From Gammaproteobacteria bacterium (GTDB lineage Bacteria > Pseudomonadota > Gammaproteobacteria > UBA6429 > Thiohalophilaceae), in NCBI GenBank assembly GCA_024641475.1, contig JAHECZ010000002.1:58706-122705 (forward strand): a stretch of DNA of 64,000 nucleotides, written 5' to 3'. The translations under genes were made by a program, and so were the position numbers. Below are positions 47,624 to 64,000 of this stretch, piece after piece (position 1 is the first letter of the stretch; every line of letters begins with the position of its first letter). The notes beneath the pieces are model-generated. The model saw only the letters and a program-made list of their open reading frames with translations. It did no database searches and was not told the origin of the DNA.

Positions 47624-47775
47624 AAACTATAACACCTGTTATCATTTTTTGTTAAAGAGAACATAAACCCAGTTACACGAACGATGTAAAAATGGCTTAG
47701 CCCTCCATTGTTTATTTTCATTTACAACCGATCTTACGTGCAATAACTATAATTTGCTCTACTCCGATCTAGTGG

Positions 47776-48984: not shown

Positions 48985-49044
48985 GGCATCAGTTCCTGAT
49001 TTATAACTCAAACAATTCTTTCCTTATTGTTAGCAACAGCCAAG

Positions 49045-50262
49045 CTACTTCATATTGTTAATCATCTTTTCCAGCTCGTCATTTTCATTCTCGATTCTTT
49101 TATTCTCCATGGCGGCCTCATCGATGACCTTTTTGCCTTTCTGCAACGCCACATCCAGATCCGCCCTGGCCTTTTGCTGGGCGGCAAGTCGCTTGGCCTG
49201 AATGGCTTGTTGGCGTGCCGCCTCTTGCTGGCGCAGCAACTCCTGTTCCTGCTGTTTTTTCAATGCCCGTTCACCGGCGTGGCGGGCATCACAGGCATCG
49301 CTGGCTGTTTTTAAATCACTGAAGAATTTTTGCTGTGCTTCCCAATTCAAGGCATCTATCCGTTTTTTCTCAGCCTGATATTGCTGCTGACTCATCCCCG
49401 AGGTCATGCTTGGGTACGGTATGCTGCTATTGAGCCCCCCGCCGAAACTGCAATCATGCGCTTCCATGTAACTGGTTAGTCGCGCCACATTCTCATTGGA
49501 ATCTTGTTCAACTTTTTGCCGTGCCGCATCAACATCATGCTGCCGTTGCACAGCTGCCGCATCCCGCGCCCGTTCTTCGTTTAGCCTGACTTTAAACTGT
49601 TCACATGCAGTGATATCGGCGCGTTCCCGGATGATACAGCGTTCGTTATCCGGACTGGCATGCCGATAGGCATACAGATAATCACTCTCAGCTTTGACCT
49701 GTTGTTGCTTGATTTCAAGCAACCGCTGTTCTTGCAGGCGCTTATTTTCTGCTTGCTCAGCCTTTTTGCGATTGGCCTCGTCAATCCTTGCCTGTTCCTT
49801 GCGTTTTAATTCATCCTGATATTCCCGATTTCTATCTTGAATCGCTCGGTTACGGGCTTCCTGCTCAGCGGCTGCTTGTTTTGCAGCAGCTTCTTCTCGA
49901 CCCGTGAAATCGTAGCCCTTCCAGCTGTACCGCAAGTCATAATGTTGTTTACAATCCACCGGTCCATTAAACAGACTGCGATAATTTGCCCCGGGATATA
50001 CATCAACATACTCCGTGCTACCCCACTCAGCGAAACTGCCTTCACCCAGTGGCTCATCTGCTCTTTTACCGACACGCGGATCACCCTTGCCAACGTATTT
50101 ATACGGCACTTCGATTTTCCACAGATGATCACTGCTATTGCTAATCATCAACTGTTTGCAGGAATATGGTGCGCCATCCATTTCCTGTATGGTGATCTGC
50201 GCCAGAAGGGTAGATGAAGCAATGACAAACAATGAACCAAGCAAAATTCTTGTTATTAGCAT
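49045..50262 (-). CDS. Secreted coiled-coil protein, unknown function
   Basis: Signal peptide MLITRILLGSLFVIASSTLLA and long E/K/R/Q/A-rich coiled-coil stretches. Confidence 0.6.
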   Translation of the reverse strand: MLITRILLGSLFVIASSTLLAQITIQEMDGAPYSCKQLMISNSSDHLWKIEVPYKYVGKGDPRVGKRADEPLGEGSFAEWGSTEYVDVYPGANYRSLFNGPVDCKQHYDLRYSWKGYDFTGREEAAAKQAAAEQEARNRAIQDRNREYQDELKRKEQARIDEANRKKAEQAENKRLQEQRLLEIKQQQVKAESDYLYAYRHASPDNERCIIRERADITACEQFKVRLNEERARDAAAVQRQHDVDAARQKVEQDSNENVARLTSYMEAHDCSFGGGLNSSIPYPSMTSGMSQQQYQAEKKRIDALNWEAQQKFFSDLKTASDACDARHAGERALKKQQEQELLRQQEAARQQAIQAKRLAAQQKARADLDVALQKGKKVIDEAAMENKRIENENDELEKMINNMK

Positions 50263-50333
50263 TGAGCTAACCTGCCAAATGATATCAAAAGATAATTGAG
50301 ATGCTGACGATTAAGCCTTCACAACCAGACTCA

Positions 50334-50717
50334 TTAGCAGCCTTTCTTCTTCATTAATTTATCAATTATCTCTTTGCGTTGTGACAGATCAGACGCCAGT
50401 TTTGAGTGTTCGCTGGAAAGATTGGCAGATTGCATCGCCCCTGAATTATTCGCGTCATAAGGCGTATTACTTGCCGAGGCAGCCATCGCTTCCAGCACAC
50501 CCAGAAACACCGCACCAATTCCGCCACCGGTGGAGGCATCCGACGCATTTTCTGCGTTATCCGCCACCTTCTGTTGCTCATCGTATAATTCCGCGCAACT
50601 TGCACCCACTAATTGGTTATTGCTCATTAAATCTTCGTGCCATGGTGCACTTGAACAGCCTGATACCATTGATAACGTGAAAATACCCAAAACTAAACCT
50701 AATTTTTTATTGTTCAT
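50334..50717 (-). CDS. Small lipoprotein, unknown function
   Basis: Lipobox LSMVSGC, RBS AAGGAA and a C-terminal Cys. Confidence 0.6.
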   Translation of the reverse strand: MNNKKLGLVLGIFTLSMVSGCSSAPWHEDLMSNNQLVGASCAELYDEQQKVADNAENASDASTGGGIGAVFLGVLEAMAASASNTPYDANNSGAMQSANLSSEHSKLASDLSQRKEIIDKLMKKKGC

Positions 50718-50828
50718 TTTTGTTCCTTAGATTGGTAATGTCGACTCTTTGGGCATGCGGTCTGGTAAACACCATTAATACGCAACGCCCGGCTTTTAAC
50801 CCAAAGAATTTGATGGGTCGTAGCGCGG

Positions 50829-50856
50829 GTATCGACAATACTTATAATTGACTTTA
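50829..50856 (-). promoter_or_regulatory. Sigma-28 (FliA)-like promoter, copy A
   Basis: On the minus strand, TAAAGTCA-N12-GTCGATAC, compared with the consensus TAAAGTTT-N11-GCCGATAA. It lies 111 nt upstream of the ATG at 50717. Confidence 0.4.
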
Positions 50857-51061
50857 GGGAATATTTGTCAATACGCGGGATCTAAATCAACAAAATGGTG
50901 ACTTGGACTAATTAGCATCACTTACGTTATACCTTGAAGCTTATCAGTATTATCTGATATACATAACTATGACCGTTCAAGACTATCCTGAATGTGATTA
51001 TTTTCTTACACAGCTACTTTCGTAGCCTCACAATCACATTTTGGATTATTCATATCTTATA

Positions 51062-52456
51062 TTAAGGTAGATAGCCCTCAGCCGTTAGTTTGGAATCGAC
51101 ACATTTCTGTTGGTTTGGCAGCTTGTCACGTGGATTCCCTTCCACACTCATGATGCAATCGAGGTTTTTTGATGTAATCCAACAACTATACGCATCCCTG
51201 CCAAACATACTCGACCCACAAGTTTTACCGAATTGGCTTATCGCCTCTTCTGGGCTTCTAATGAAGAAGTTTGTGCTTTGGCCAGTACTGGCACCTAAAC
51301 TTGAATAAATCATACCGGTATGTGGAAATGCTGAATCAACCGGTCCTGGCTTAGTTCCTCGCCATGGCATGGCGCCACTGTGTCCGATTGAAACAATCAA
51401 GCGCACATCCTCTCCCGCGGCTACGTTGCATGGTTGTCCCAATTTTCTTGAGCACAATTGTGAGGCGTATTGGATTGCCTCACGCGGTGAGTTTGCCCCA
51501 CATGATGAAACTGATACTAAATTTCTATCCATTTCTCTCATGATAGTTGCCCCCCAATTCGAACCAATACATTCTACTACCTTATCTTTAATTGATAATT
51601 TGTAGATTGAATTAGCCGAATTATAAATTAGGTTATGCTCTATGATTCCATTTTTTACCATTGCAACAGCCTGTTCTTTGGATTTCGCTGCAACGAGAAG
51701 TGTCTTATCGTAGGTGTTATCTTTCTGACCGTATGTAACTATATATAAATTTCCCGGTACTACACCAACCGGCCATTTGCCACCATTTGAGGCAGCCACT
51801 GATTTTCCATTGACTGATGTCTGCTTGGGCACTTCTTGAGAAACGACTAAACGTGATGGAGAATTTCCTGGTGCGCGCGCCAACTCTGTTGCCTGTCCAT
51901 CTCCTTGTTTCATCTTGGCAGTAATTTTATCTGTAAATTTTCCTTTGACAGATACAAATGGATTTTTAGAAACCCCGGCACTACCTGTGATCTCCGCATT
52001 AAATCCATTGTCCTTTAACACAAGCATTCCGGCGAATCCATTCATTGAGTCCATCAACAGTTTTATCTCTCCATTAATTTTCTTTTCTTTCAATGCTGTA
52101 ACTGACGAAGGAGAACCACCGATGGACGATACTACCGTGACAATCACATTCTTCGAAACAATGCTGCCGTCGTTCCCTCCACCAAGAATACGTGCTTTAA
52201 TTGTCGTTTTGATACTTGAACTCTTCACGCGTATTTTAAAATTAGAAATTTCTCCTTCCACAATACCTACATGTGTAGCCAATTTATCATTTACCCACAA
52301 TTCCAGTCGCTGCCCTGAAATCAGGGGCTTGTCAAATTTTACTTCAACAGGAATCACCGCACCATTTTCTGCCTTATCCGGTGCAATAATCTGCATGGCA
52401 CAAACAGGTGTGCAACCAAAAACGAGGCTAATAAACAGCACTTTAAACAGATTCAT
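51062..52456 (-). CDS. Secreted protein with an N-terminal SoxY-like Ig-fold segment and a Cys-rich C-terminal domain
   Basis: Signal peptide. IIAPDKAENGAVIPVEVKF...ISNFKIRVK resembles the SoxY N-terminal pattern, but the GGCGG arm is absent. The C-terminal part has 8 Cys. Confidence 0.6.
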   Translation of the reverse strand: MNLFKVLFISLVFGCTPVCAMQIIAPDKAENGAVIPVEVKFDKPLISGQRLELWVNDKLATHVGIVEGEISNFKIRVKSSSIKTTIKARILGGGNDGSIVSKNVIVTVVSSIGGSPSSVTALKEKKINGEIKLLMDSMNGFAGMLVLKDNGFNAEITGSAGVSKNPFVSVKGKFTDKITAKMKQGDGQATELARAPGNSPSRLVVSQEVPKQTSVNGKSVAASNGGKWPVGVVPGNLYIVTYGQKDNTYDKTLLVAAKSKEQAVAMVKNGIIEHNLIYNSANSIYKLSIKDKVVECIGSNWGATIMREMDRNLVSVSSCGANSPREAIQYASQLCSRKLGQPCNVAAGEDVRLIVSIGHSGAMPWRGTKPGPVDSAFPHTGMIYSSLGASTGQSTNFFIRSPEEAISQFGKTCGSSMFGRDAYSCWITSKNLDCIMSVEGNPRDKLPNQQKCVDSKLTAEGYLP

Positions 52457-52645
52457 TTTTGATTCCTTTATACATTGACATAAAGTCTACAAAAGCAAAG
52501 TATGCTAGCGAACGCATTAAATTAGATTGAATCAGATCAGCGTCGATTGGTATAGATGACATGCTGTGCCTTACCCCGGTTGTACCTTAGGTCATCAACC
52601 TACATAGACGTCACTTTTCAGTGCCGTTTCTTATTCAATTGATCC

Positions 52646-52726
52646 TTAGGTACAGGGTAAAAATACCAACGGGAATTCTGTGCTGGTGTTCAATCCACGT
52701 GCCAGCGTGAAGTTATTGTTATTCAT
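52646..52726 (-). pseudogene. 26-codon ORF (MNNNNFTLARGLNTSTEFPLVFLPCT); possibly a remnant of a duplicated lipoprotein 5' end, or a leader peptide
   Basis: It has the same promoter motif, the same leader length, an AAGGAAAAAAATG RBS and an MNN start as the 50717 lipoprotein gene, but stops after 26 codons. Confidence 0.2.
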
Positions 52727-52835
52727 TTTTTTCCTTTGTAATTTATACCTGTGTCTGGAGACAACACATTGTTTAGATCGGCATCGGGCAAGCAGCCACC
52801 TTATATTCCCGGTTATTCGCCGGGGTGTTTTGCCT

Positions 52836-52863
52836 CTATCGACATAATTTATATTCGACTTTA
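52836..52863 (-). promoter_or_regulatory. Sigma-28 (FliA)-like promoter, copy B
   Basis: On the minus strand, TAAAGTCG-N12-GTCGATAG, 109 nt upstream of the ATG at 52726. The surrounding 30 nt are about 75% identical to copy A. Confidence 0.4.
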
Positions 52864-53126
52864 GGAAAATAGTGAGGCTGCGAGAGAGATATACACGCAA
52901 TTATCAGAGTTAGACCAATCCTAAGATCGGAATTGATCCCGGGATGTCAATTAACGGTTGCTAATATAGATTAAACCGCGTGCCTATCCGTATACAGCCT
53001 TAGCATACTAGCAGGACAAGTTTCGTAGTAAAAATATATGACGAAAGCATTTCGGTGAGATGAGTATTCTACGATAACGTCATGGTCACAGGTAGTCGCA
53101 CACTGGATGATATCTTATCGATATAT

Positions 53127-54110
53127 TTAAGGTGTTATTCCATGCGTGTATCTCTTATTTCCATTCATATCCGTTACCCTTACGCCTATATTATCAAACG
53201 TCTCTCCGGATTTTTTCATTCCATGCAACACTTGCCGATCAGCATAATAGGTAAGATGTGCTAAACCAGTTTGTGTTTTTTCACCGGTAAAAGATTGCTC
53301 TGTTCTTGTTACTGGCTCTTGATAAAGACACGGGTTGTAGCTGGGTACATAAGCCATATTACCTCCCTGATATTGATACACGTAGTTATACCCCCCTCGA
53401 CACGTCATAACTGTGTGAGATGTCTGTTGAGTACCACCACCTATACCATGCTGAACCAGTACTACTTTAAGTAACACAGAAGTTACGTCCGAAGATAACC
53501 GATTCGCCAGTGGCTTAGCCAACGAAGCACTAACACGGTCCCACACCCCTTTAGCAAACTCCTTATTTAATTTTGAGGGTATCAAGTTACGTCTTTCCGT
53601 CGCAAGATGAAGTGGAACTATTAGTGCGACATTGTCTTGTAATTTTTCGAAAAATAGCGGTTCCGCCAGATCGTAATCTGACAGTTCGGCTTTGGTAAAT
53701 TGCTTATACAATATCGCAACAAGTCCGGCTGCGTATTTTTCATGAATTCTTTGTAATACCGGATCAGGATATTTCTTGTTTGACATTACCGCATTATTTC
53801 TCTCTAAATTAACACGCACATGCAATGAGCCTGGCTGCACCTCGACCATAACAGGCTTATAAAGCGGTTTACGTATCTGAATGCGCACAATGGATTGCTC
53901 ACTGTGAAATTCTACAGGTGCAGATAATGGCGTACTCCCCAATGGGATATTTCTCATCCCTAGTTTTATAAATACCGCAGCTCCTTCGGGAGATGTAGTT
54001 ACATGAATCTGCCTTTGAATTTCACCATAGATATTTGAGTGTATTGCGGCCCCTGCAATAAAAGCCAACGAAAATGCCAGTTTCGCTGCATGCTTATGCA
54101 TACTAATCAT
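53127..54110 (-). CDS. Exported protein with an N-terminal PEGA-like domain
   Basis: Signal peptide, then VTTSPEGAAVFIKLGMRNIPLGSTPL (PEGA pattern). Its ATG overlaps the upstream stop (ATGA). Confidence 0.6.
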   Translation of the reverse strand: MISMHKHAAKLAFSLAFIAGAAIHSNIYGEIQRQIHVTTSPEGAAVFIKLGMRNIPLGSTPLSAPVEFHSEQSIVRIQIRKPLYKPVMVEVQPGSLHVRVNLERNNAVMSNKKYPDPVLQRIHEKYAAGLVAILYKQFTKAELSDYDLAEPLFFEKLQDNVALIVPLHLATERRNLIPSKLNKEFAKGVWDRVSASLAKPLANRLSSDVTSVLLKVVLVQHGIGGGTQQTSHTVMTCRGGYNYVYQYQGGNMAYVPSYNPCLYQEPVTRTEQSFTGEKTQTGLAHLTYYADRQVLHGMKKSGETFDNIGVRVTDMNGNKRYTHGITP

Positions 54111-54688
54111 CTCAAGCCAGACTGATTAAGGTTGTTCGTTAAGGCAACCATAAAAACACTCTGTATATCTGCAATATCTTTATGCCAGATAGTATCCGGT
54201 CCTACGTTATAGGTAGGCTTGATTGCCAAGTCTTTACAACTGCCCCAAACTGATTCCAAGCAATCACCCTGGCTCTTGACGACCAATGTCACTGTTGATC
54301 GTCGCGGCCCTTGTTCTTTCACCATGATTTTAGTAAAGAGATGTACAGGACGTCTCTTTCCATGACCGTCATACCAATAAACCACCTTTTTACCGAACAA
54401 GATTCCGTGTTGTTTGTCCGTTTCTTGCAGATCTATGCCGATTTGACTTGCAGACTTATCGACTATTTCAAACAAATCTGCATAAGCAACGTCAAATTTA
54501 CGCCGGACATAGGCATCCTCCGGAATACTGCTGACATTGTCCGCCTCACCTGGTGGATAGGCCTCTTGAATTGTCCCAAATCGTTCCGGGTAATATTTTC
54601 CCCAGAAATCGTTTGCACATGCTGCTAACAATCCGACCATTGCCAGTAGCGATACTCGCAACATCACTTGCCTATTGATTATATTCAT
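54107..54688 (-). CDS. Lipoprotein, unknown function
   Basis: The ATG at 54688 is preceded by AGGAGG. Lipobox GLLAAC. Confidence 0.6.
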   Translation of the reverse strand: MNIINRQVMLRVSLLAMVGLLAACANDFWGKYYPERFGTIQEAYPPGEADNVSSIPEDAYVRRKFDVAYADLFEIVDKSASQIGIDLQETDKQHGILFGKKVVYWYDGHGKRRPVHLFTKIMVKEQGPRRSTVTLVVKSQGDCLESVWGSCKDLAIKPTYNVGPDTIWHKDIADIQSVFMVALTNNLNQSGLR

Positions 54689-54775
54689 AACAACCTCCTT
54701 TTTATTTGATTGCATATTTTACGATGAACACATGCATGCCCTTAAATTACCGGCGCAATAATCAACCTCTCCACT

Positions 54776-54813
54776 AAAATATCGGTAACGGCGCGATACA
54801 ACGCGCCATTACC
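54776..54813 (-). terminator. Terminator after the beta-helix lipoprotein gene
   Basis: Stem GGTAACGGCGCG (54784-54795) pairing with CGCGCCATTACC (54802-54813), 11 of 12 pairs, followed on the minus strand by GATATTTTAG. Confidence 0.55.
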
Positions 54814-54849: not shown

Positions 54850-57234
54850 CTATCGGCCATTTATTTCATATTTCATCAGAGTAATACCGGTGAGCACGCC
54901 GTCACTGAATGGGCCTGCGCTGATGAGTGCAGCATGTCCCTGGTAGCTTCCATAGTTTGGTGCATACAAACAAGTTTCCTTGGATTCACACAAACCATTG
55001 TCATTGCCGCTGCCATCTCGCTGAACCTCAATAGCATTTCGCAGGAAGGTAATGCTGCCAAGATTCGACCATGTATGTGTCAGCGTATCGTTGCCTTTAG
55101 GTATTTCAAGCACGCCACGAATTACTTTACCGGAACTCAACAGTGACCAATCCCAGATGCGGCCCGTTCCTGTGCTCCACCGTCCCTGATGGTCTGTCGC
55201 GGGAAAGGCCGATCCATCTTTACCCCATCCACGGTATACCGTATCGAAGTGCACCCAATCGAAACTGGCAGGATCAGCAGGATAGGTGGCAAAACCATTC
55301 GTATCGCTGATATTGTATGTATCCCCAATACTAACCTTGCCAACAAAAGAACCGTCGAGCGAAATACCCGTAATTGGCAAGCCAAAATCCGAACTACCCT
55401 GCTGGGTACAGTCTGCGTTCAATCCCGGATTAGTGCCACTTGTTACCTGGCAATCAGTGCCATTGTTCCCGACTTGTACCTTCCCGGTAAAATAGTTGTT
55501 TGAGGAAAAATACAGATTTAACCCCTGCCCGTCGTTATTTGCTGCTGTCACATTTGCAAATGTATTATCAGACGAAGTTCCTGCATAAAGTCCACCACTG
55601 GCATTATTTACGACTACTACCTCTGTGAGGGTATTAATCTTGGTATTTGAAAGCTGAATACCGAATGTACCGTTATTCGAAGCAGTGATTTCGCTTAATA
55701 TATTATTTGCGGTATTACTCAATAATACACCCGCACCGGAATTGCTCGAAGAGGTAACCTTGGTTAGCACGTTGTCTGCCGCATCAGTAAACAGATACAC
55801 GCCAGCACTGGCATTGTTCGTGGTTAAAACCTCGGTGAGTGTATTATTTGTCGCTGCGGTCAGGAAAACACCTGGCCCCTGATTATTCGAGGAAATTGCT
55901 TGCGAAAGAGTATTCCCATCTGCACTGGCGAGCTGAATACCAATACTGGCATTGTTTGTTGCAGTAAGCTGTAACAGCACATTACCTGCGGCATTTGCGA
56001 GTGTCACCCCAGCGCTATTATTTGACGCGTTGATTTGCGTAAGCGTATTATTCAAGGCATTATCGAGCGTTATGCCGGTGATAGCTCCACCCAGAGCGGT
56101 TACCTGTTCGAGCGTATTATCCGTCGCATAGAAGAGATAGACTCCGTAGCCATTACCGTCGGTGCTAAGCTGTGTAAGCCTGTTGTTCGCAGTGTGGTCG
56201 AGATAGATATTATATGAACCATTGGCTGCATGAATATTGCGTAATACCGAGAAGGCTACGTAATTCCAGCTTATGCCTCGATTGTCAAAAGTGGCGTCTA
56301 TTGCTCCCTCTATCCAGAGATACGCCCGATTGTTCGCCGCTATCAGGTATTCATTCATATTGGCAGTGCCAGTGAGCGTCACCGCTGGCGCGATCACCAG
56401 CGCGATCTGGTCTTTCCCGATTTTATATGTGGCAGCGGGATTGACGGTTATAATACGCACGTCCCCCTGAACCATGTCACTGCCATCGCTGCCATCATTA
56501 TCGACAATGACCGGATTGTTCCACCAGCTTGTACTTGAAGACTTCCCATAAATGCTGCCATTGGAGTAAACATAGACCCAGTTGCTACGCCAGGCCGCAC
56601 CGCTGAAATCAAGCAAATCGGACAGGCGCTTATTATCATTCAGTCGATTTGAAACCATGCGCACCGGATTAGCACTACCATCACAGACCCAGTTAAACGC
56701 CCCGAGCACATCCACTGCTGTCAAACCGAGACAGCTACTCATGCCAGACACTACCACAGCGCGCATCTCACCACCGTGAATAACGGCGCCGTAACCACCG
56801 GTCTCAGTTCCATCGGTGCGTGTATCGGTTGCGGAATAAATCGATTTGCCATCATTCTTGATGTAATCATTCCAGTTGGCACCATTTAACGGATAAAACG
56901 GTGTGACGGCACCGAGCGTAGCCAGGAAAGATACCGAGACTGTACAGTTACCGGTTATTGGCCCGGTCGTATATGTATTGCCGATACGTACTCCACCACA
57001 ACCCCCTACTTCGCCAATAGCGAAGTTAACCGCCGGGATAATCGTAAAGCTGGTGGTATTGCCTTCCGTGACAGTGATGCTGGTCGGGGAAATGCTGCCA
57101 CCGCTACCGACACTGGTACTGACCGCATATTGCGTTGGCTCGTTACCACCACCACCGCCACCGCAAGCAGCGAGCGACAGAATAATAACCAGCATGACAA
57201 TATTTGTTAGGTATAAACAGTTAATGGTTTTCAT
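54850..57234 (-). CDS. Large lipoprotein L1: InlB-B-repeat-like domain plus right-handed parallel beta-helix repeats
   Basis: Lipobox-polyGly LSLAACGGGGGGNEP. N-terminal YAVSTSVGSGGSISPTS..GNCTVSVSF. More than 12 repeats of about 22 aa (NNTLT.V...NN.GAGV.L). Confidence 0.8.
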   Translation of the reverse strand: MKTINCLYLTNIVMLVIILSLAACGGGGGGNEPTQYAVSTSVGSGGSISPTSITVTEGNTTSFTIIPAVNFAIGEVGGCGGVRIGNTYTTGPITGNCTVSVSFLATLGAVTPFYPLNGANWNDYIKNDGKSIYSATDTRTDGTETGGYGAVIHGGEMRAVVVSGMSSCLGLTAVDVLGAFNWVCDGSANPVRMVSNRLNDNKRLSDLLDFSGAAWRSNWVYVYSNGSIYGKSSSTSWWNNPVIVDNDGSDGSDMVQGDVRIITVNPAATYKIGKDQIALVIAPAVTLTGTANMNEYLIAANNRAYLWIEGAIDATFDNRGISWNYVAFSVLRNIHAANGSYNIYLDHTANNRLTQLSTDGNGYGVYLFYATDNTLEQVTALGGAITGITLDNALNNTLTQINASNNSAGVTLANAAGNVLLQLTATNNASIGIQLASADGNTLSQAISSNNQGPGVFLTAATNNTLTEVLTTNNASAGVYLFTDAADNVLTKVTSSSNSGAGVLLSNTANNILSEITASNNGTFGIQLSNTKINTLTEVVVVNNASGGLYAGTSSDNTFANVTAANNDGQGLNLYFSSNNYFTGKVQVGNNGTDCQVTSGTNPGLNADCTQQGSSDFGLPITGISLDGSFVGKVSIGDTYNISDTNGFATYPADPASFDWVHFDTVYRGWGKDGSAFPATDHQGRWSTGTGRIWDWSLLSSGKVIRGVLEIPKGNDTLTHTWSNLGSITFLRNAIEVQRDGSGNDNGLCESKETCLYAPNYGSYQGHAALISAGPFSDGVLTGITLMKYEINGR

Positions 57235-57425
57235 GACTTGTTCCTCCGTTTAGTTGTTTTCCCTTGCGGCTGATGGATCAAAATCGCAATTAACTCGTCG
57301 ATGGTATGAAATGGTGTACGTTGTGCATGCGAAATATCTTCAACGACACCCACTATTCCGTCCTCGCCTTCGGGATACTGCAGCGAGCGTCGATAGATAC
57401 GCACGATATAGCTCTCATCATTCAT
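57231..57425 (-). CDS. Small cytoplasmic protein (64 aa) translationally coupled to lipoprotein L1
   Basis: MNDESYIVRIYRRSLQYPEGEDGIVGVVEDISHAQRTPFHTIDELIAILIHQPQGKTTKRRNKS. The stop overlaps the L1 ATG (ATGA). Decayed paralogs lie upstream of L2 and L3. Confidence 0.6.
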   Translation of the reverse strand: MNDESYIVRIYRRSLQYPEGEDGIVGVVEDISHAQRTPFHTIDELIAILIHQPQGKTTKRRNKS

Positions 57426-57485
57426 ATGGTAAATAATCTATCCTCTGGCATGTTACAATTCGGGCATAACATGTATATGTAACGG

Positions 57486-58316
57486 CTATTCTCGCGGTGC
57501 TGCCTTGCAATAGTTTCCAAGCTCCCCGTCAAGATTGGCCTTCCTGCCAACTACCACCTGAGTGGCTGTAATTGGGAATTTTGTCGAGGCCCCGTATAAC
57601 GTTCCAATTGACACTGGTACTATTTGTCCCTTCGCATAGCCATATACATCAAATTTAGTCTGTGGTTTATCGTGATGGATGATCAATAAATTACCAGACA
57701 CGATATACCGCCCACTGGTTTGCTGACGTGCGGGTTTCGATTCCTCTGCATTCATGGCACCACCAAATATATCGCCAAACCCTTGCTTAACCTTTTCTTG
57801 AAAGATGTTCACCTTGCCATTCTGAGTAAACACAAGTTCGGTCACATAACTTGATCCATATGCGCCACCCTCTTTGAATTGGCAATAATAGGCAATGTTC
57901 CAGGAAGTGGGTTTAATGTTCCTGGTTTTAACGAGCTTAGATTTTTCGATGATATCCTGCCTGTGTATCCAGCCGTCCACCCTGTCCAACAGTGGTTCGG
58001 TAATCGGGGGCGTACTCACATACAGCCACTCCTTGCTATTAACGCCTGACCCTGCTTGAGCAGGTGGTTTTGTCTGATATACGTAGTGACCTAATCCCAC
58101 ACGTAACCATTTTTGCTGTTTGTCGGTCATGTCTTCGTATGTATAACCATTATTCTGATTCGGCTCCGCATACAGTTGGGCACCTTCAATATTTGTTACG
58201 TAATATAATACCGCTCGATTATCAGCCTGGGTAATAACAGGAAAAATGAACAGGATCAGAAACACAATCACTATACTGGTCGTAGCGACAGTAACCCTCG
58301 AGAAACATACAATCAT
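57486..58316 (-). CDS. Secreted hypothetical protein (276 aa)
   Basis: Signal peptide ...FIFPVITQA and RBS AGGAG. No motif recognised. Confidence 0.6.
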   Translation of the reverse strand: MIVCFSRVTVATTSIVIVFLILFIFPVITQADNRAVLYYVTNIEGAQLYAEPNQNNGYTYEDMTDKQQKWLRVGLGHYVYQTKPPAQAGSGVNSKEWLYVSTPPITEPLLDRVDGWIHRQDIIEKSKLVKTRNIKPTSWNIAYYCQFKEGGAYGSSYVTELVFTQNGKVNIFQEKVKQGFGDIFGGAMNAEESKPARQQTSGRYIVSGNLLIIHHDKPQTKFDVYGYAKGQIVPVSIGTLYGASTKFPITATQVVVGRKANLDGELGNYCKAAPRE

Positions 58317-58458
58317 ATGTATAGCTCCTATGACTTAGTGATTTTTGAGAATTCATTAATTATTATCTCGTCAATCTATATTCACTCCAGCAGACCATTG
58401 TGTTACGGATTTCATCTTCGATAGAGTATTGGCCTATGCGCAGGCTAACCAAATACAG

Positions 58459-61008
58459 TTACAGTAACGGACATAAGTGATGAATATAGGGAACAAACTC
58501 GGCGGTATTCATAATATATTCGGCCAGATAAATATCCGATGCGTTGTCGATATCATGTAAGATATATGGCAAAAAGCTGTAATACGTACCCTGATAATAA
58601 ACAAAGCTGACATTGGTAATAACTAATCCGTCATCATTCACATGCTGTGGTCGTGGCGGAACATTTCCCTCAGGCGATGTCAAGATCGTAAAATTGCCAT
58701 CCTGGTATATAAAACCTGCGTATGCGTTAATCTCAGGATTGTCCAGCCAACCCACGACTGTCCCATTGTTGCTAATATCCATTCCGGTGATGTAATTGTA
58801 GGGTGCAGGTGGTCCGAGTCTCGTAAAATTGCCATCTCTGTATACATAGATAGCTGTGTATTCTTCACCCAACAACACATCCCCGTGATCATTCATGGCG
58901 ATGGCTTTAGGTGGAAGCGCCCCCGGCGGGATCAGCTCAATATAGTTGCTAGAGTCATAATCCATTCGTAGTGGTATCACAAAATTATTGTCAACATAAG
59001 TCACAATAGCCTGATCATTGACGTTTACATCCACGACCTGTAAATCAATTGGATTGATCACCCAGCCATTTTCAGCGGCACGCGTAATGATCTGGTTTTT
59101 TACCGAATCATCGCCATAATTCAAATGGACCAGCTTGCGGGCATTGGTCAATTTCATATCCGAGGTATTCAAGTAGGAGTTAACATTATTATTAATTACA
59201 CGGGTAGACACTAAGTCCGTCGGGAAAGTGGGTACATGCACCTTCGCAATGCCTTCGTAACTAACACCCTCGCCAAGATTAACTCTGGCTGTAATAGTGG
59301 CATCACCTTCCTGACTTGCGATCACGAAACCTGTGGAATTATTGATCGTGGCAGTGCCACTGTTAGAGGATTGCCAGAATGGAGGATATAAATCGAGCTT
59401 GCGGTTATGTTTGTCGCGCACAGTGGCAGTGAATTGTTGTGTCTCAAGCGGATGCAAGCAGGCTTGTGCCGGGATGACAGTTACATACAAACCCGACACG
59501 GAAATTTTTGCCGATGCACTCATACCGCTTGCCCCGTGTCGAACAGTTAATGTTGTTTCACCTTCGTTTTTCGCGTAGATTGTTGCGACCCCTTCGTTTA
59601 AGTTATCAATATTAGCGATTGACGTATCAGCAACTTCCCAAACCAGACCCACAGTGGGTTGCAAAATATTATCTATGTATAAAGATGCATTAAACGTCGT
59701 GAGTTGACTACTGCGCACTTCCTGTCGAATAGGACTGAGATGAAGGCTATTACCAATACCAATTTTTGAATATACATCTGCTGTAGATATTAATAATCCC
59801 AATACATTTTCCATTTGAGGGATGCTTGGGCTAGCTGCATTCGATAAGTCATACAAAACCTTATCTAGCGCAAATACATGTACTGTTCCTCTTTTCAGCG
59901 CATTTACCGTGGTGTTTTGCCCATTTTGAGAATAGCTAAAAATAGAGCTATCCGGTTCACTACCTAACTGCCAGATAATTTCTCGATTTGTCAACGGAAT
60001 ACCATTTAGCCCGCGCACATCTGCGAAAAGACCCACGCTCTCACCTGGATTCAAAGAGGCCCACCCTGGGGTCAGCTCGAATGTATGAATTCCGCAAGTT
60101 CTGCGGGCTTCCAAATCTATCCCATCCCAGAGTATAGAACTTCCAGAGATGTCAACAAATTTTCTTGTTGCAATAATCCACCTGAACATTTTAGTTTCTT
60201 GCGACTGATCACCGGCTTCACATAGTACATTCATGCTATCAAAAACTTCATTTATCTTTGCAACCAGATATTCTGCGCTTTGTGTATACAGATCATCCAT
60301 ATTGGAACAAAAGGTTAGCTCTATTGGCGTTTCACAAACAGTCACTGGATATTCGTAATCGATTACTTCCCAAAGCAGCGCAAAACTTGCACTTCTGTTG
60401 TAAAGACTATACATAAGCTTTTCATCAAACGCCGTGAACTGGCTTATATCAACGATCAGCTGATCGAACTGCAGTTTGGCCTGCTTAAAGAATTCCATTT
60501 TTTGCGTATCGTCAGTCAACCTCATAGCACCGGCACTACTGAAGTGCAAAACTTCCATTTGCAAATCCGTACCTGTCTTTTTCGCCGGGATAAATTGAAA
60601 GTGACTGGCATCGTTGTTTGCCAGATAACCGACAGCGACTGCATCGGTCGGCAACGACAAGGATTTAAAGAATAAGCTTGCAGGAATACTGAACTGCAAG
60701 CCCTCCGGCTCGAGCTTTACCGCCAGGGCAACTTGTCCGGCCAGCGGGATAGCTCCGATATTGGACTGTATGGCGACGGTTACATCAACATTTTCGGTTA
60801 CAGCATTTGGCGGAATGACCAGCGTTACCTCCACACCCGTAGCAGATTGAATCGTCGCCTGACCGCCTGCCGCAGGAGTGACAACAACGGTTGCCTGTCC
60901 TGGGGTGATATTCACCGGTGGTTTATCACTACCACCCCCGCCGCAGCCAGTAAGCCCCAGGATAAAGAGAAAGACAGATGCTAACGAAAATTTAGTGATC
61001 GTTCTCAT
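58459..61008 (-). CDS. Large lipoprotein L2: Big_2-like Ig domains plus C-terminal HAF-like extracellular repeats
   Basis: Lipobox-polyGly LGLTGCGGGGSDKPP. The middle has Ig-like segments (LTPGWASLNPGESVGLFADV; ATIYAKNEGETTLTV; ATITARV). The C-terminal repeats are AMNDHGDVLLG...YRDGNFTRL and ISNNGTVVGW...YQDGNFTIL. Confidence 0.75.
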   Translation of the reverse strand: MRTITKFSLASVFLFILGLTGCGGGGSDKPPVNITPGQATVVVTPAAGGQATIQSATGVEVTLVIPPNAVTENVDVTVAIQSNIGAIPLAGQVALAVKLEPEGLQFSIPASLFFKSLSLPTDAVAVGYLANNDASHFQFIPAKKTGTDLQMEVLHFSSAGAMRLTDDTQKMEFFKQAKLQFDQLIVDISQFTAFDEKLMYSLYNRSASFALLWEVIDYEYPVTVCETPIELTFCSNMDDLYTQSAEYLVAKINEVFDSMNVLCEAGDQSQETKMFRWIIATRKFVDISGSSILWDGIDLEARRTCGIHTFELTPGWASLNPGESVGLFADVRGLNGIPLTNREIIWQLGSEPDSSIFSYSQNGQNTTVNALKRGTVHVFALDKVLYDLSNAASPSIPQMENVLGLLISTADVYSKIGIGNSLHLSPIRQEVRSSQLTTFNASLYIDNILQPTVGLVWEVADTSIANIDNLNEGVATIYAKNEGETTLTVRHGASGMSASAKISVSGLYVTVIPAQACLHPLETQQFTATVRDKHNRKLDLYPPFWQSSNSGTATINNSTGFVIASQEGDATITARVNLGEGVSYEGIAKVHVPTFPTDLVSTRVINNNVNSYLNTSDMKLTNARKLVHLNYGDDSVKNQIITRAAENGWVINPIDLQVVDVNVNDQAIVTYVDNNFVIPLRMDYDSSNYIELIPPGALPPKAIAMNDHGDVLLGEEYTAIYVYRDGNFTRLGPPAPYNYITGMDISNNGTVVGWLDNPEINAYAGFIYQDGNFTILTSPEGNVPPRPQHVNDDGLVITNVSFVYYQGTYYSFLPYILHDIDNASDIYLAEYIMNTAEFVPYIHHLCPLL

Positions 61009-61112
61009 GGCACATTCCTCCGCGTATGCATTTTCCCTGGCTCTTGCGGTTGACAGATCAGGATCGCCATTAATTCGCCGGACGGATGAAACACACTACG
61101 CCACTCTCGCAC
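61005..61112 (-). pseudogene. Decayed or truncated paralog of the 64-aa small ORF, coupled to L2
   Basis: The open frame 61151-61005 reads HSEEYIEAGRRGVVREWRSVFHPSGELMAILICQPQEPGKMHTRRNVP*. There is no in-frame ATG before residue 28; a possible GTG at 61112 follows AGGAG. About 12 codons are missing relative to the intact copy, and the stop overlaps the L2 ATG. Confidence 0.3.
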
Positions 61113-61189
61113 GACTCCTCTCCTACCAGCTTCAATATATTCTTCGCTGTGTTACAGATCGGATACAGATCGATATGACAAATGACCGA

Positions 61190-62431
61190 TCAATTACCGA
61201 GTGTGGGACTGCAGCCTGATCCCCCCTGTATCCCAACCGCCCAGATAGCGATCACACCGGTACCGGAATCACAACCTTGCCCGCCACCAACACCGGAGTA
61301 TTGGCCACTCGCGTTGTTGGCATAACCGCCGTTGACAATGGCGTATTGGCCGCTGGCCGCATTGAACTCGCCACCGGTCACATGCGCATAAGCGCCGCTG
61401 GCATTGTTGCGGGCACCGCCGCTAATCGTCGCATTGTTACCAACTGCGGTATTGTTTAGTCCACCGGTTACACTTGCACTGGCACCGCTGGCCGTGTTGC
61501 CTTGACCACCTGTGACACTGGCGTATGCATTGGTGGCGAAGTTCTGTCTGCCGGCAGTAACACTGGCGAAATCGCCATTGGCATTATTGTTCCACCCGCC
61601 GCTGATACTGCTGTGCATACCTCGGGCGGTATTCACTGATCCACCAGTCACGCTGGATGTTGATCCGCTGGCAACATTATTCTTTCCCCCGCTGACACTG
61701 GCCGTTGCACCACTGGCAACATTGCTCGCCCCGCCACTAATACTGGTTAATTTTCCGAGTGCAATATTTCCAAACCCACCGCTCACGCTGGCACCCGGGC
61801 CACTTGCATTATTTTGTCGGCCACCACTGATACTGGCGAAATCGAAATTGCTGGTGTTCTCAGTGCCGGCGACCAGGCCACCCCAACGCGAATAATTATT
61901 CAATGCACCAAGCACAAGGTAATGTGATCCGCCCTTGTGGCTGTCCGCCCACACGCCACCCGCGGTCGTGCATTCCATTTCATTCGTCACCGGGCTGATC
62001 GTATTGGGATCCGTGCCCAACGAACACATCATGCGGCCGGAATTGTTGACTTCGTCGTAACCGATTAGCAGATTGCCCAACCCATTGCTGCTATCTGTGT
62101 GATCCAGACCGTTGACGACCTGTACGTTGACACCGGAAAAGCGCACCGTCGGCTGGCCATTGACTGTCGCCAACGAAACACTGGCAAGCTTGGCTTCCAG
62201 CGCAGTGAGCCGGTTTTGCAGTTCTGCATTCATCGCTTCGAGCATTGCAATCCGGCCATGGTTGTCGTCGACCGCCGTTTTTATCGATGCAAAATTGCCG
62301 TTAACTTCGGCGGCACGGGCGGGGGTATTTGCTTTGAAACTGGTTAAGCCTGCGACATCCCCCGCAACACTGGTTTGTGCAATCATCAACAACACAGAAT
62401 AAATGATCGCGACTTGTATCGATGCATGCAT
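61190..62431 (-). CDS. Secreted protein with an N-terminal coiled-coil stalk and YadA-head (Hep_Hag)-like 14-residue repeats; no membrane anchor
   Basis: Signal peptide, ARAAEVNGNFASIKTAVDDNHGRIAMLEAMNAELQNRLTALEAKL, then about 13 repeats of [AS]SV[ST]GG..N.A.G... Confidence 0.7.
   Translation of the reverse strand: MHASIQVAIIYSVLLMIAQTSVAGDVAGLTSFKANTPARAAEVNGNFASIKTAVDDNHGRIAMLEAMNAELQNRLTALEAKLASVSLATVNGQPTVRFSGVNVQVVNGLDHTDSSNGLGNLLIGYDEVNNSGRMMCSLGTDPNTISPVTNEMECTTAGGVWADSHKGGSHYLVLGALNNYSRWGGLVAGTENTSNFDFASISGGRQNNASGPGASVSGGFGNIALGKLTSISGGASNVASGATASVSGGKNNVASGSTSSVTGGSVNTARGMHSSISGGWNNNANGDFASVTAGRQNFATNAYASVTGGQGNTASGASASVTGGLNNTAVGNNATISGGARNNASGAYAHVTGGEFNAASGQYAIVNGGYANNASGQYSGVGGGQGCDSGTGVIAIWAVGIQGGSGCSPTLGN
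61276..61831 (-). repeat. In-frame 42-nt (14-codon) tandem repeat region inside the Hep_Hag-like gene
   Basis: ASVSGGFGNIALGK / TSISGGASNVASGA / ASVSGGKNNVASGS / SSVTGGSVNTARGM ... Coordinates are approximate and derived from residue numbers. Confidence 0.6.
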
Positions 62432-62491
62432 AATCTGTCCCTCCCAATTACTTATGTGTCGTCTGTACTCATCCGCAAATGAATACTGAAC

Positions 62492-63913
62492 TCAGGGCAA
62501 CACAAACCCTTCCAGCCCTTCTTCATCATCACTACTGCTGGCCAGCGGAATCAGTTCGCTACCGTCAAGGTTGATTGCAAAGATATCGCGCTGACCGCCG
62601 CTCACCGTGCGATTGAAAATGACTCTGCCATTTGGCGTGATATCAACTGGCCATTCAGCCTCGTCCGGATCGGCGGCCAGCGCCACCAACCCGGTACCAT
62701 CGGCGTTAACGCTATAAACATCATTCAGACCATTGCTCTTTATGCGCAGGTTATAAATGATACGGTCACCGGACTGGAAACCCTCAAAGTACTCGTCATT
62801 GACCGGGTCGTTAGCCAATGCCATCAATCCGGTACCATCCTCGTTAATGATGTACAGATCCTGCTGGCCATTGACATTCCAGCCAACACCCACGCGGCCG
62901 CGAGACACGATAAATGGCGAGGCGGAGTTGCCTGTACTGGTAAGTCGTATTGATCCGCTACCATCAGGGTTAACGCTGTATACGTCCAGTGACTGCGGGA
63001 TTGCACGCCGGGTATAGATCACTTTTCCGCTATCAGTCATCCCGACAATATCTTCATCGTCCGCAGAGCTGGCGAGTGCTGTTAAGCCGGTGCCATCGGC
63101 ATTGATGCTGTACAGATCATTCTGGGTCCCGAAACGTTGAAAGAATATCCGGCCTGCGGGGGTGATTTTCCTGACGAATTCGTTTTCCGCCGTATCGGTG
63201 AGCCGTATCAGATCGGTACCGTCGGCACGAATGCTGTACAGATCGGCTTGTGTAAGATTGTGCCACCGAGTGAACACCACTCGATCGTCTGCGGTCATAC
63301 CATTGAACACCTCCGAATCCGCCGAATCCGCCAATGGCCTTAGTCCGCCACCATCGGTGTTGGCGCTATAGATGTCCCATCCAGTAGCTGCCGAGTAGTT
63401 TTTGAAGACGACCCGGCTACCAGAACTGATTCCCGTGAAACCGAAAGTACTGCCAGCCACCAGTCTCCTGTCGCTGCCATCGGCATTGATGCTGAATATA
63501 TCCTCCCGGCTCCCATTCCATGATGAATAAATCACGCGCCCATCGGGGGCTATGACAGCGAATGTATCATCGTATACGCTGTCGGCAAGCACGACAGGAT
63601 TTGAACCATCGGCATTCACGATGTAAAGATCGCTGTTGCCACCAAAAGGTGTTTTTGAATAAAGTATTTTTCCACCGGTTGCAACAGAAATGAATCGTTC
63701 ATTATCAGTGGGACTGGTCGCCAATGCCACGCGGCCGCTACCGTCTTCCTTCACGAGATAGAGATCGCGCTGGCCATTGCTTGTGCGCAAATAGGGAACA
63801 GTAGCGAGTTGCGGCGTTGGCGCTGTAACGCCACCGCCGCCGCCCCCGCAACCGGTGAGTCCCAGAATTAAACTAACCAGGCCTATGATCGGAAACTGGA
63901 AAGTTGTTTTCAT
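62492..63913 (-). CDS. Large lipoprotein L3: 10-repeat TolB/PD40-like beta-propeller protein
   Basis: Lipobox-polyGly LGLTGCGGGGGGVTAP. Ten repeats of about 42-48 aa with core D[LIV][YF]x[IV]NxDG[ST]G (DLYSINADGTG, DVYSVNADGTG, and so on). Confidence 0.75.
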   Translation of the reverse strand: MKTTFQFPIIGLVSLILGLTGCGGGGGGVTAPTPQLATVPYLRTSNGQRDLYLVKEDGSGRVALATSPTDNERFISVATGGKILYSKTPFGGNSDLYIVNADGSNPVVLADSVYDDTFAVIAPDGRVIYSSWNGSREDIFSINADGSDRRLVAGSTFGFTGISSGSRVVFKNYSAATGWDIYSANTDGGGLRPLADSADSEVFNGMTADDRVVFTRWHNLTQADLYSIRADGTDLIRLTDTAENEFVRKITPAGRIFFQRFGTQNDLYSINADGTGLTALASSADDEDIVGMTDSGKVIYTRRAIPQSLDVYSVNPDGSGSIRLTSTGNSASPFIVSRGRVGVGWNVNGQQDLYIINEDGTGLMALANDPVNDEYFEGFQSGDRIIYNLRIKSNGLNDVYSVNADGTGLVALAADPDEAEWPVDITPNGRVIFNRTVSGGQRDIFAINLDGSELIPLASSSDDEEGLEGFVLP

Positions 63914-64000
63914 TGCATGTTCCTCTAATAGGTAGTTCTCTGGCCGTTACAAGATGAATTCCAATCGCTTTTGTCTAGTCCAATCCCGATAAATTATGCG

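Follow-up and report, generated by a model that had tools for sequence, protein, structure and literature searches.

Introduction

In Streptomyces, the small gene afsS is activated by the product of its neighbour, AfsR, a regulator of ~1,000 aa that combines a SARP (Streptomyces antibiotic regulatory protein) module, TPR repeats and a STAND-type ATPase; AfsR acts via two direct repeats of 11-bp units that overlap the -35 region, and the small AfsS product acts "in an as yet unknown way" (PMC10972967). At a classical SARP site, heptamers are repeated directly in units of 11 bp that overlap the -35 (PMC10972967); the Pho box of Escherichia coli has the consensus CTGTCAT (PMC3333781). In Proteobacteria, a conserved element upstream of many unrelated PEP-CTERM genes is the site of the PrsK/PrsR/sigma-54 system (Haft et al. 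2006, PMC1569441). It comprises an enhancer and a -24/-12 promoter, no open reading frames (ORFs) were found in those regions, and further regulatory classes of PEP-CTERM genes remain to be found (PMC1569441). SARP control of PEP-motif genes has a precedent, since GSU1771, a REC-SARP regulator of Geobacter, affects such genes. The genes for exosortase substrates and for large environmental lipoproteins are among the least understood of bacterial genomes, and how they are switched on together is largely obscure. We have analyzed a stretch of 64,000 nucleotides (the window) from the gammaproteobacterial contig JAHECZ010000002.1, in which three lipoprotein genes, here called L1, L2 and L3, were reported to share upstream DNA.

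An earlier note regarded these genes as carriers of one duplicated 5' module, a conserved leader, coupling and export device spliced onto different passengers and possibly served by a dedicated exporter. Here, we describe the parts that accompany the shared DNA in this and other genomes, their order, their conservation and their statistical association. The shared upstream DNA probably marks a regulatory module of surface-protein genes and not an export cassette, and once the annotation of the window is corrected, the "duplicated 5' module" is accounted for by one promoter and a pair of small genes.

Results

L1, L2 and L3 are predicted lipoproteins with unrelated passengers

The N-termini that had been quoted for the three proteins are the exact starts of three minus-strand ORFs, defined by ORF, Pfam and NCBIfam analysis:

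54850..57234, minus strand: L1, a predicted lipoprotein of 794 aa, MKTINCLYL...LAAC-GGGGGG, with a parallel beta-helix passenger
58459..61008, minus strand: L2, a predicted lipoprotein of 849 aa, MRTITKF...LTGC-GGGG, with Big_2 domains and a C-terminal HAF-like region
62492..63913, minus strand: L3, a predicted lipoprotein of 473 aa, MKTTFQF...LTGC-GGGGGG, with a DUF5050/TolB-like beta-propeller

At 473-849 aa the proteins are not "giant", the epithet under which they were introduced. Behind a basic and a hydrophobic N-terminal region each matches the lipobox pattern [LVI][ASTVI][GAS]C, expected about 15-35 residues from the start (L1 ..LSLAAC, L2 ..GLTGC, L3 ..GLTGC, residues 21-24), which is a pattern match only, and continues from the Cys into four to six Gly; a six-frame scan found no other such ORF start in the window. 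Residue +2 is Gly and not Asp, and by the E. coli rule the proteins are predicted to be released to the outer membrane. Judged from these features, the three proteins are conventional lipoproteins of the Sec/signal-peptidase-II pathway, in which Gly-rich tethers carry unrelated passengers. A Gly tether behind the lipid-modified Cys is compatible with surface display and says nothing on it.

The passengers are unrelated, as had been proposed. L1 matches the Pfam families Beta_helix (1.9e-22) and NosD (3.3e-20) and the NCBIfam repeats TIGR03804; L2 matches Big_2 (6.7e-09) and, weakly, HAF_rpt (0.028); and L3 is the DUF5050/TolB-like propeller. BLASTP similarity among the three is confined to the first ~20-50 residues, with 42% identity between the N-terminal 48 aa of L3 and L2. 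None of them ends in a C-terminal sorting domain (a PEP/VPLPA motif, a transmembrane helix and a basic cluster), and no exosortase-type C-terminus occurs in the window. Residues 5-51 of L2 give a weak match, under cut-off, to NF058595, the "lipo-invert putative C-terminal anchoring domain" (NCBIfam, E 0.003), which probably reflects just hydrophobic, Gly-rich composition.

A small gene precedes L1 and, in truncated form, L2

The DNA directly upstream of the three lipoprotein genes holds one intact and one truncated small ORF:

57231..57425, minus strand: intact small ORF of 64 aa, MNDESYIVRIYRR...GVVE..F..EL..IL followed by the basic tail KRRNKS; full translation MNDESYIVRIYRRSLQYPEGEDGIVGVVEDISHAQRTPFHTIDELIAILIHQPQGKTTKRRNKS
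61005..61112, minus strand: truncated small ORF copy of 35 aa from a GTG, VFHPSGELMAILICQPQ..TRRNVP; translation VREWRSVFHPSGELMAILICQPQEPGKMHTRRNVP
63914..64000, minus strand: DNA upstream of L3, with the Shine-Dalgarno sequence GAGGAA and stops in all three frames; the window ends after these 87 nt

The TGA stop of the intact small ORF overlaps the ATG of L1 as ATGA. The 35-aa copy, which is preceded by the Shine-Dalgarno sequence GGAGAGGAG, is truncated at its 5' end; it retains the third strand, the helix and the basic tail of the predicted fold described below, overlaps the start of L2 in the same ATGA arrangement, and is 50% identical to residues 21-62 of the intact copy (tblastn within the window, E 1.4e-4). 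At both L1 and L2 the string cggaggaa doubles as the Arg-Arg-Asn codons of the small-ORF tail and as the Shine-Dalgarno sequence of the lipoprotein gene.

The upstream homology that had been described for all three genes is clear for L1 and L2, whose 87 upstream nucleotides align locally with z = 15.9, a score reached by none of 500 shuffles. For L3 it is marginal against L1 (z = 3.3) and not significant against L2 (z = 0.5), and the visible DNA may hold a weak, decayed remnant of the 3' end of the small ORF. The first 99 coding nucleotides of L1, L2 and L3 resemble each other with z = 8-10, a similarity that is partly forced by the lipobox and the Gly codons. These figures bear on an alternative view, that the N-termini and the upstream DNA resemble each other only through the generic composition of signal peptides and Shine-Dalgarno sequences and have no common origin. 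The two low values for L3 and the inflated similarity of the 99 coding nucleotides would fit such a view in part; the L1/L2 upstream alignment, the identity of the translated L2 remnant to the small protein of L1, and the recurrence of the small-protein family and its promoter in at least 80 other loci speak against it. It is refuted for L1 and L2, and as a general explanation we find it scarcely credible. The 5' similarity of L1 and L2 would instead stem from a duplication, within this lineage, of a unit made up of the small gene, a Shine-Dalgarno sequence and a signal peptide.

The small ORF belongs to a large unnamed protein family

An exhaustive HMMER search with the small protein returned homologues that fall into 31 representatives at 50% clustering, and a profile search extended the family to at least 1,642 clusters at 90% identity, in which all named entries but one are "hypothetical" and none carries a Pfam domain. 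Family members are often uncalled or annotated as hypothetical only. For analysis of their surroundings one genome per species was scanned, which gave 134 confirmed loci, of which 80 were kept. The hosts of these 80 are uncultured Gamma-, Beta-, Delta- and Zetaproteobacteria, Nitrospirae and others. By its TypA sequence the organism of the window falls among uncultured Gammaproteobacteria near Acidiferrobacterales and Sulfuricaulis, groups to which many of the 80 loci also belong. Complete genomes with the module include OZ257154.1 and OW818669.1.

In alignments the members share the core xSYIVRIYRR-x(8-13)-G-x-V-E-x(9-11)-F-x(4)-EL-x(2)-IL, in which R9, Y11, G26, E29 and F39 are conserved, and end in a basic tail that varies. 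The three codon positions of the 80 genomic copies have nucleotide entropies of 1.21, 1.03 and 1.73, respectively, and this excess at third positions indicates purifying selection on a protein. AlphaFold2, given 57 homologues, predicts three strands, one helix and a disordered tail with a mean pLDDT (predicted local distance difference test) of 77 and a core of 86-91. Homologues, codon pattern and predicted fold together mark the small ORF as a genuine gene, one of a large family that has no name.

No Pfam or NCBIfam family matches the window copy. Assignment to DUF7889, judged by the Pfam gathering threshold, was rejected: the window protein does not match that model, and only four of 29 and five of 57 relatives match it, weakly (best E 5e-4). 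A Foldseek comparison of the AlphaFold2 model with the PDB gave no significant neighbour (best E 0.7), and a profile search of PDB sequences with the small protein returned nothing; the model raises the possibility of a new regulatory fold. Rfam models match neither the window between 52 and 64 kb (E up to 1) nor, at gathering score, any of 11 related loci. Literature searches found no occurrence of the motif string VRIYRR and nothing relevant on VPLPA-CTERM or PEP-CTERM genes together with a small ORF.

Five relatives, three of them encoded in the loci and two taken from the databases, carry a PilZ domain with the RxxxR and DxSxxG motifs C-terminal to the small domain. All five fusions match PF07238, four of them above cut-off; the 64-aa protein of the window has no PilZ domain by Pfam, and the small domain itself matches neither the PilZN nor the YcgR_N model. 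Because the domain occurs both alone and fused to PilZ, a receptor domain for cyclic di-GMP, a part in regulation or interaction is likelier for it than that of a passive leader peptide.

A tandem-repeat promoter lies upstream of the small ORF

When the DNA upstream of the small ORFs was aligned, a direct repeat in tandem became apparent, ATCYGTAAS-NN-ATCYGTAAS, whose period is 11 nt. Within 300 nt upstream of the small ORF and with at most four mismatches, this box was found in 64 of the 80 loci as against 21 of 1,448 control segments. Its position is constrained (median 84 nt ahead of the conserved small-ORF motif), and in 62 loci a conserved TAnnnT follows exactly 11 nt past the box, with no -35 element. 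Given this fixed spacing, the box would span about -43 to -24. Half-site variants are identical in both repeats of a locus.

The window contains one such promoter, in front of L2:

61151..61170, minus strand: repeat box ATCTGTATCCG-ATCTGTAAC, 7-nt repeats with an 11-nt period; whole box ATCTGTATCCGATCTGTAAC
61134..61139, minus strand: -10-like hexamer TATATT, after an 11-nt spacer from the box
61171..61203, minus strand: two more, degenerate repeat units, CTCGGTAATTG and ATCGGTCATTT, upstream of the box and overlapping the stop of a 413-aa gene

The window box has one mismatch to the consensus ATCYGTAASNNATCYGTAAS, and the order of elements is box, 11-nt spacer, TATATT, GGAGAGGAG, the GTG of the truncated small ORF, and L2. 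When the window was scanned with a matrix for box plus -10 built from 63 sites of other genomes, with 20 shuffles as control, a single hit exceeded all shuffles (61133..61172, minus strand; 22.6 versus a shuffle maximum of 18.7). The degenerate units score weakly (9.0 at 61164..61203), and there is no matrix match above background before the intact small ORF, L3 or the other neighbouring genes. At 61134-61170 heptameric direct repeats with a period of 11 bp replace the -35 about one helical turn from the -10, the arrangement by which a SARP-type promoter is recognized, and the box is a putative SARP/OmpR-type activator site.

Two other candidates were discarded. A sigma-54 promoter upstream of the small ORF was seen in four of 81 cases and in 37 of 830 controls, and the peptide EEYIEAGRRG before the L2 remnant, considered as a decayed N-terminus of the small ORF, is encoded by the spacer and -10 element of the box promoter. 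Between 57426 and 57480, before the intact small ORF, CCGTTAC...GTAAC forms an inverted pair, though an imperfect one, and one GTAAC resembles a half-site; there is no tandem box and no good Shine-Dalgarno sequence. Transcription and translation of the intact small ORF would depend on read-through from the L2 promoter.

In three related loci (L024, L020 and L083; e.g. L083 2640-2690) the small ORF starts only ~6-7 nt past the -10 hexamer, which suggests that it is translated leaderless there; in other loci its 5' leader has a median of ~35-40 nt. The 12-kb loci also contain 16 additional high-quality boxes (e.g. L049 6230, L044 6182, L079 6619, L014 5097, L033 2078 and L083 2495-2514). Some of these stand between the small ORF and the cargo gene, that is, the gene that follows it, or drive a divergent cargo gene, and one regulator may serve several promoters per locus.

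A MalT-SARP protein is the sole recurrent neighbour

All-against-all BLAST of up to 6 kb of flank on each side of the small ORF identified only one recurrent neighbour among 79 loci, a family of ~1,070-aa ORFs found in 58 of them. Of the 59 loci with enough flank, 36 have it immediately upstream in the same orientation and ~13 more have it elsewhere; the ~10 loci that lack it are "orphan" units. Pfam detects AAA_16/AAA_22, TPR_MalT, Trans_reg_C and a C-terminal BTAD (4e-20 to 5e-22), and by NCBIfam the first ~400 residues resemble MalT (1e-32 to 1e-58) and the last ~220 the SARP part of AfsR. By domain composition the protein is a MalT-like STAND ATPase with TPR repeats and a C-terminal SARP module of winged helix and BTAD. 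In 32 adjacent regulator/box pairs its putative recognition helix shifts with the half-site: boxes of the TGTAAG type go with ..TTLHRLR, those of the GGTAAG type mostly with ..VALHRLR, and GTAGT and GTAGC boxes with helices that lack the His.

It could also be proposed that the small protein itself binds the tandem repeats as an autoregulatory activator or repressor and that the large regulator acts elsewhere. The linkage of box and small ORF in 64 of 80 loci, the basic C-terminal tail, the small beta-sheet plus helix fold, the weak, non-significant Foldseek neighbours, which include the DNA binders MBD and Cren7, and the presence of the same half-site variant in both repeats of a locus would all suit such a role. 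The geometry of the site (7 + 4 nt, an 11-nt period, abutting the -10), however, is the one known for SARP/OmpR proteins with a winged helix, and the neighbouring gene encodes a protein of this kind, whose recognition helix changes with the half-site; moreover, boxes exist without a small ORF, and the small protein has no significant structural match, its best E value being 0.7. Binding of the box by the small protein seems very unlikely to us.

The module precedes genes for exported proteins

Proteins encoded downstream of the small ORF are strongly enriched in export signals. A signal-peptide-like N-terminus is present in 53 of 71 such proteins and in 149 of 589 other ORFs of the same loci (P 5e-16); an exosortase-type C-terminus, VPxPAAxWLFGSGLxGL..RRK, in 23 of 71 and 18 of 589 (P 7e-14); and a strict lipobox with poly-Gly in six of 71 and two of 589 (P 3e-5). 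By eye, ~13 cargo proteins are lipoproteins with Gly/Ser-rich tethers. NCBIfam sorting-domain models match all ten of the cargo proteins tested: VPLPA-CTERM (TIGR03370) occurs in eight, six at cut-off, and PEP-CTERM and IPTL-CTERM in one each above cut-off. Two or three further small VPLPA-CTERM genes often stand in tandem behind the first cargo gene, as in L011, L038, L064 and L078 (~6.2-8.8 kb). Loci L008 and L009 hold an identical box, small ORF and cargo gene in metagenome-assembled genomes (MAGs) of different phyla (Gammaproteobacteria and Aggregatilineales), which is probably a binning error or shared contamination in one MAG.

Only one of the 39 intergenic gaps of at least 50 nt between the small ORF and the cargo gene holds a terminator-like hairpin, and this near-absence of terminators makes the small ORF the first cistron of the cargo operon. 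The start of the cargo gene lies at anything between -20 and more than +280 nt from the small ORF (median 56), and coupling by ATGA, as in the window, is therefore no general feature.

These distances bear on the possibility that the small ORF acts solely in cis, as an upstream ORF whose translation, and not its product, sets downstream expression through coupling or mRNA unfolding. In its favour, the ATGA overlaps at L1 and L2 place the lipoprotein Shine-Dalgarno sequence inside the last codons of the ORF, and the truncated L2 copy retains exactly the 3' part and the coupling; besides, several related MAGs hold more than one copy, each before a different cargo gene, and some copies are apparently leaderless first cistrons. 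Against it stand an amino-acid sequence that is conserved from Gamma-, Beta-, Delta- and Zetaproteobacteria to Nitrospirae, substitutions that follow a coding pattern, the compact fold predicted with confidence, the five PilZ fusions, the variable cargo distance and the lack of an attenuator or terminator behind the small ORF (one in 39). We consider a purely cis-acting role unlikely. A leader-peptide attenuator does not fit either, since the ATGA overlap in the window leaves no room for one, a hairpin occurs in one of the 39 related gaps, and Rfam has no match.

The composition of the cargo also bears on the proposed export device, in which a leader and coupling cassette would send passengers of many kinds to the cell surface by way of a dedicated exporter (Slam-like, or a type I or type V secretion system, T1SS or T5SS) encoded beyond the window. 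The lipobox and Cys-Gly4-6 tether are indeed common to L1, L2 and L3 and specific to them within the window, and poly-Gly lipoproteins are enriched behind the small ORF in other genomes. The conserved element, however, encodes a cytoplasmic protein without a signal peptide, is tied to a promoter and a transcription regulator, and also precedes VPLPA-, PEP- and IPTL-CTERM proteins; L1, L2 and L3 have no C-terminal sorting domain. Since the same unit stands before cargo with other sorting signals and with ordinary signal peptides, the lipoprotein signal and Gly linker lie outside the conserved module. Nor does any exporter family recur in the flanks of the 79 loci, where the recurrent neighbour is the transcription regulator. 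Pfam detected no Slam/DUF560 among the window proteins at 35.2-39.7 and 41.9-63.9 kb, where its matches were confined to domains of signalling proteins, MFS transporters, binding proteins and sulfatases; no search by name was made for T1SS, T5SS or Lol components. What survives of the earlier proposal is a single 5' unit that stands before unrelated secreted proteins and recurs across lineages, but its conserved part is a gene for a cytoplasmic small protein with an activator-dependent promoter and includes no leader. To an export cassette we would give very little credence indeed.

The closest relative shows the same kind of cargo

The nearest small-ORF homologue with genomic context, 65% identical to the window protein, lies on a metagenome contig (locus L083). 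Its box, ATCTGTACCCGATCTGTAAC, differs from that of the window by 1 nt and is followed by 11 nt, TACGTT, an almost leaderless small ORF and a gene for a 745-aa lipoprotein, MKTIKHL...LAGCGGGGGG, with a Lactonase-type propeller. On the opposite strand an identical box precedes a beta-helix lipoprotein (..LTACGGGG) with no small ORF. This layout indicates that the box regulon of the lineage consists of Gly-tethered lipoproteins with beta-helix and propeller passengers, the same kind as L1, L2 and L3.

Transcript layout and neighbouring genes in the window

Three further features complete the layout of the region:

57486..58316, minus strand: secreted protein of 276 aa between L2 and the intact small ORF, with an N-terminal hydrophobic signal and no Pfam or NCBIfam match
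61190..62431, minus strand: secreted protein of 413 aa between L3 and the L2 promoter, with Gly/Ser/Asn-rich repeats xSxSGGxxNxAxG
54784..54813, minus strand: terminator-like hairpin after L1, 12 pairs, eight of them G-C

No terminator-like sites were found between L2 and L1. On this ground the 276-aa gene is probably in the same transcript as L2, and a single transcript would begin with the truncated ORF and L2, take in the 276-aa gene and the intact small ORF, and end behind L1 at the strong hairpin at 54784-54813. The 413-aa protein gives a weak match to LbR_Ice_bind, a grass antifreeze beta-roll model, and its repeats resemble the L1 beta-helix (E 1e-7). A metagenome scan with L3 gave no relatives and exact look-ups of L2 and L3 gave nothing; the Logan contigs reached from the small ORF and the 413-aa protein, L001 and L082, end inside the region.

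The minus strand at 46292-54715 encodes a run of seven proteins of 443, 411, 405, 127, 464, 327 and 202 aa that are predicted to be secreted or to be lipoproteins, and no Pfam family is found in this run except one sub-threshold match. The 405-aa protein (49045-50262) is largely rich in Gln, Glu, Lys, Arg and Ala and coiled-coil-like, and at ~50-54 kb the G+C content is 0.41-0.43, as against ~0.49 usual in the window. The run may be a surface-protein island adjoining the L1-L3 cluster. Two proteins of cyclic di-GMP (c-di-GMP) turnover, a 4HB_MCP-PAS-GGDEF-EAL protein (37265-39664) and a HAMP-GGDEF protein (42839-44428), are encoded 15-20 kb from the cluster; they are of interest only given the PilZ fusions in relatives.

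Discussion

A model for the module

In the reading that we favour, a regulatory module of surface-protein genes, the complete module is seen best in related genomes and has four parts in order: the ~1,070-aa MalT-SARP regulator, the repeat promoter, the ~65-aa gene, and at least one gene for an exported or surface protein, without an intervening terminator. By analogy with SARP and PhoB biology, the regulator, once activated by a ligand, would bind the repeats as a tandem dimer and recruit RNA polymerase. More speculatively, the small protein would be a regulatory partner or effector of the circuit, as AfsS is to AfsR, and the PilZ-fused variants would tie it to c-di-GMP. In the window, the box promoter at 61134-61170 would drive the truncated 35-aa copy, translationally coupled to L2, from a predicted start near 61127, and transcription would pass the 276-aa gene and the intact small gene and stop at the hairpin behind L1; L3 would have at most a decayed remnant of the small gene in its visible 87 nt. 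L1, L2 and L3 would share a type of transcriptional unit and not an export device.

Our more specific proposal is tentative, and we hold it with somewhat less than even confidence: that the 64-aa ORF family is a dedicated effector or feedback subunit of a MalT-SARP and repeat-promoter system that occurs in several bacterial lineages, that switches on sets of surface proteins, both exosortase substrates and Gly-tethered lipoproteins, and that is wired to c-di-GMP through PilZ in some lineages.

Several observations weigh against the favoured reading of a regulatory module. No MalT-SARP regulator is encoded in the 64-kb window (tblastn with five regulators, E up to 1e-3), and binding of the regulator to the box is deduced from sequence; the covariation of recognition helix and half-site is suggestive and is confounded by phylogeny. 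The intact small ORF has no recognizable box of its own and a poor ribosome-binding site, and read-through to it is deduced solely from the missing terminator-like sites. The small ORF does not follow 13 of the 16 additional boxes and hence is not obligatory for box promoters. About ten of the 71 downstream genes look cytoplasmic, among them those for an ECF (extracytoplasmic function) sigma factor, a cNMP-binding (cyclic nucleoside monophosphate) protein and a helix-turn-helix protein. Finally, the small protein matched no structure or sequence by Foldseek and the PDB profile search.

If the model is correct, SARP-type activation, best known from the control of antibiotics in actinomycetes, reaches the surface-protein genes of Gram-negative environmental bacteria, and an AfsR/AfsS-like circuit exists outside the actinomycetes that controls the cell surface rather than antibiotics. 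The 20-nt box, the fixed -10, the small ORF and the candidate regulator form a signature that can be scanned for in any genome to find co-regulated surface proteins.

Comparison with known systems

The statement that no system of this organization has been described holds for the literature search, Pfam, NCBIfam, Rfam and the PDB, and we found no description of the MalT-SARP architecture, the box or the small-protein family. The nearest parallels lie in five directions. The flexible linker behind the lipid-modified Cys recalls the Slam-dependent lipoproteins TbpB and fHbp. In contrast to these, no Slam/DUF560 was found nearby, either in the scanned window proteins or in the 79 loci; the passengers here are beta-helix, Ig-like and propeller domains, folds that were not compared with TbpB and fHbp; and the conserved companion is a cytoplasmic small protein with a transcription factor. 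The placement of the small domain N-terminal to PilZ in five relatives is reminiscent of PilZ effectors of the YcgR/MrkH type and suggests that it serves for output or interaction in the control of biofilm and cell surface, although the window copy and most family members have no PilZ domain.

The PrsR/sigma-54 system offers the precedent of an upstream regulatory unit common to otherwise unrelated exosortase-substrate genes; here, by contrast, the promoter has a sigma-70-type -10, a tandem box, a conserved small ORF and no sigma-54 motif. At the level of the site, PhoB/OmpR class II promoters are alike in having two 7-nt repeats with a 4-nt gap that replace the -35 ~10 nt from the -10, and their CTGTCAT resembles CTGTAAG, but the protein encoded beside the box is an ATPase-TPR-SARP protein without a receiver domain and not a two-component response regulator.

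The loci are also like AfsR-afsS, with its triad of regulator, repeat promoter and adjacent small gene, which in the related loci is a ~65-aa gene; in the window the regulator is not included. The order of domains is reversed, an N-terminal MalT-like ATPase being followed by a C-terminal SARP module; Gram-negative environmental bacteria, not actinomycetes, are the hosts; the small protein has a predicted folded domain of three strands and a helix, for which homology to AfsS is not expected; the small gene is predicted to be co-transcribed with exported-protein genes, whereas afsS stands alone; and the targets are surface proteins and not antibiotic clusters. SARP-type activation with an adjacent small gene is already known, and the small-protein family, the class of targets and the phylogenetic range appear to be new.

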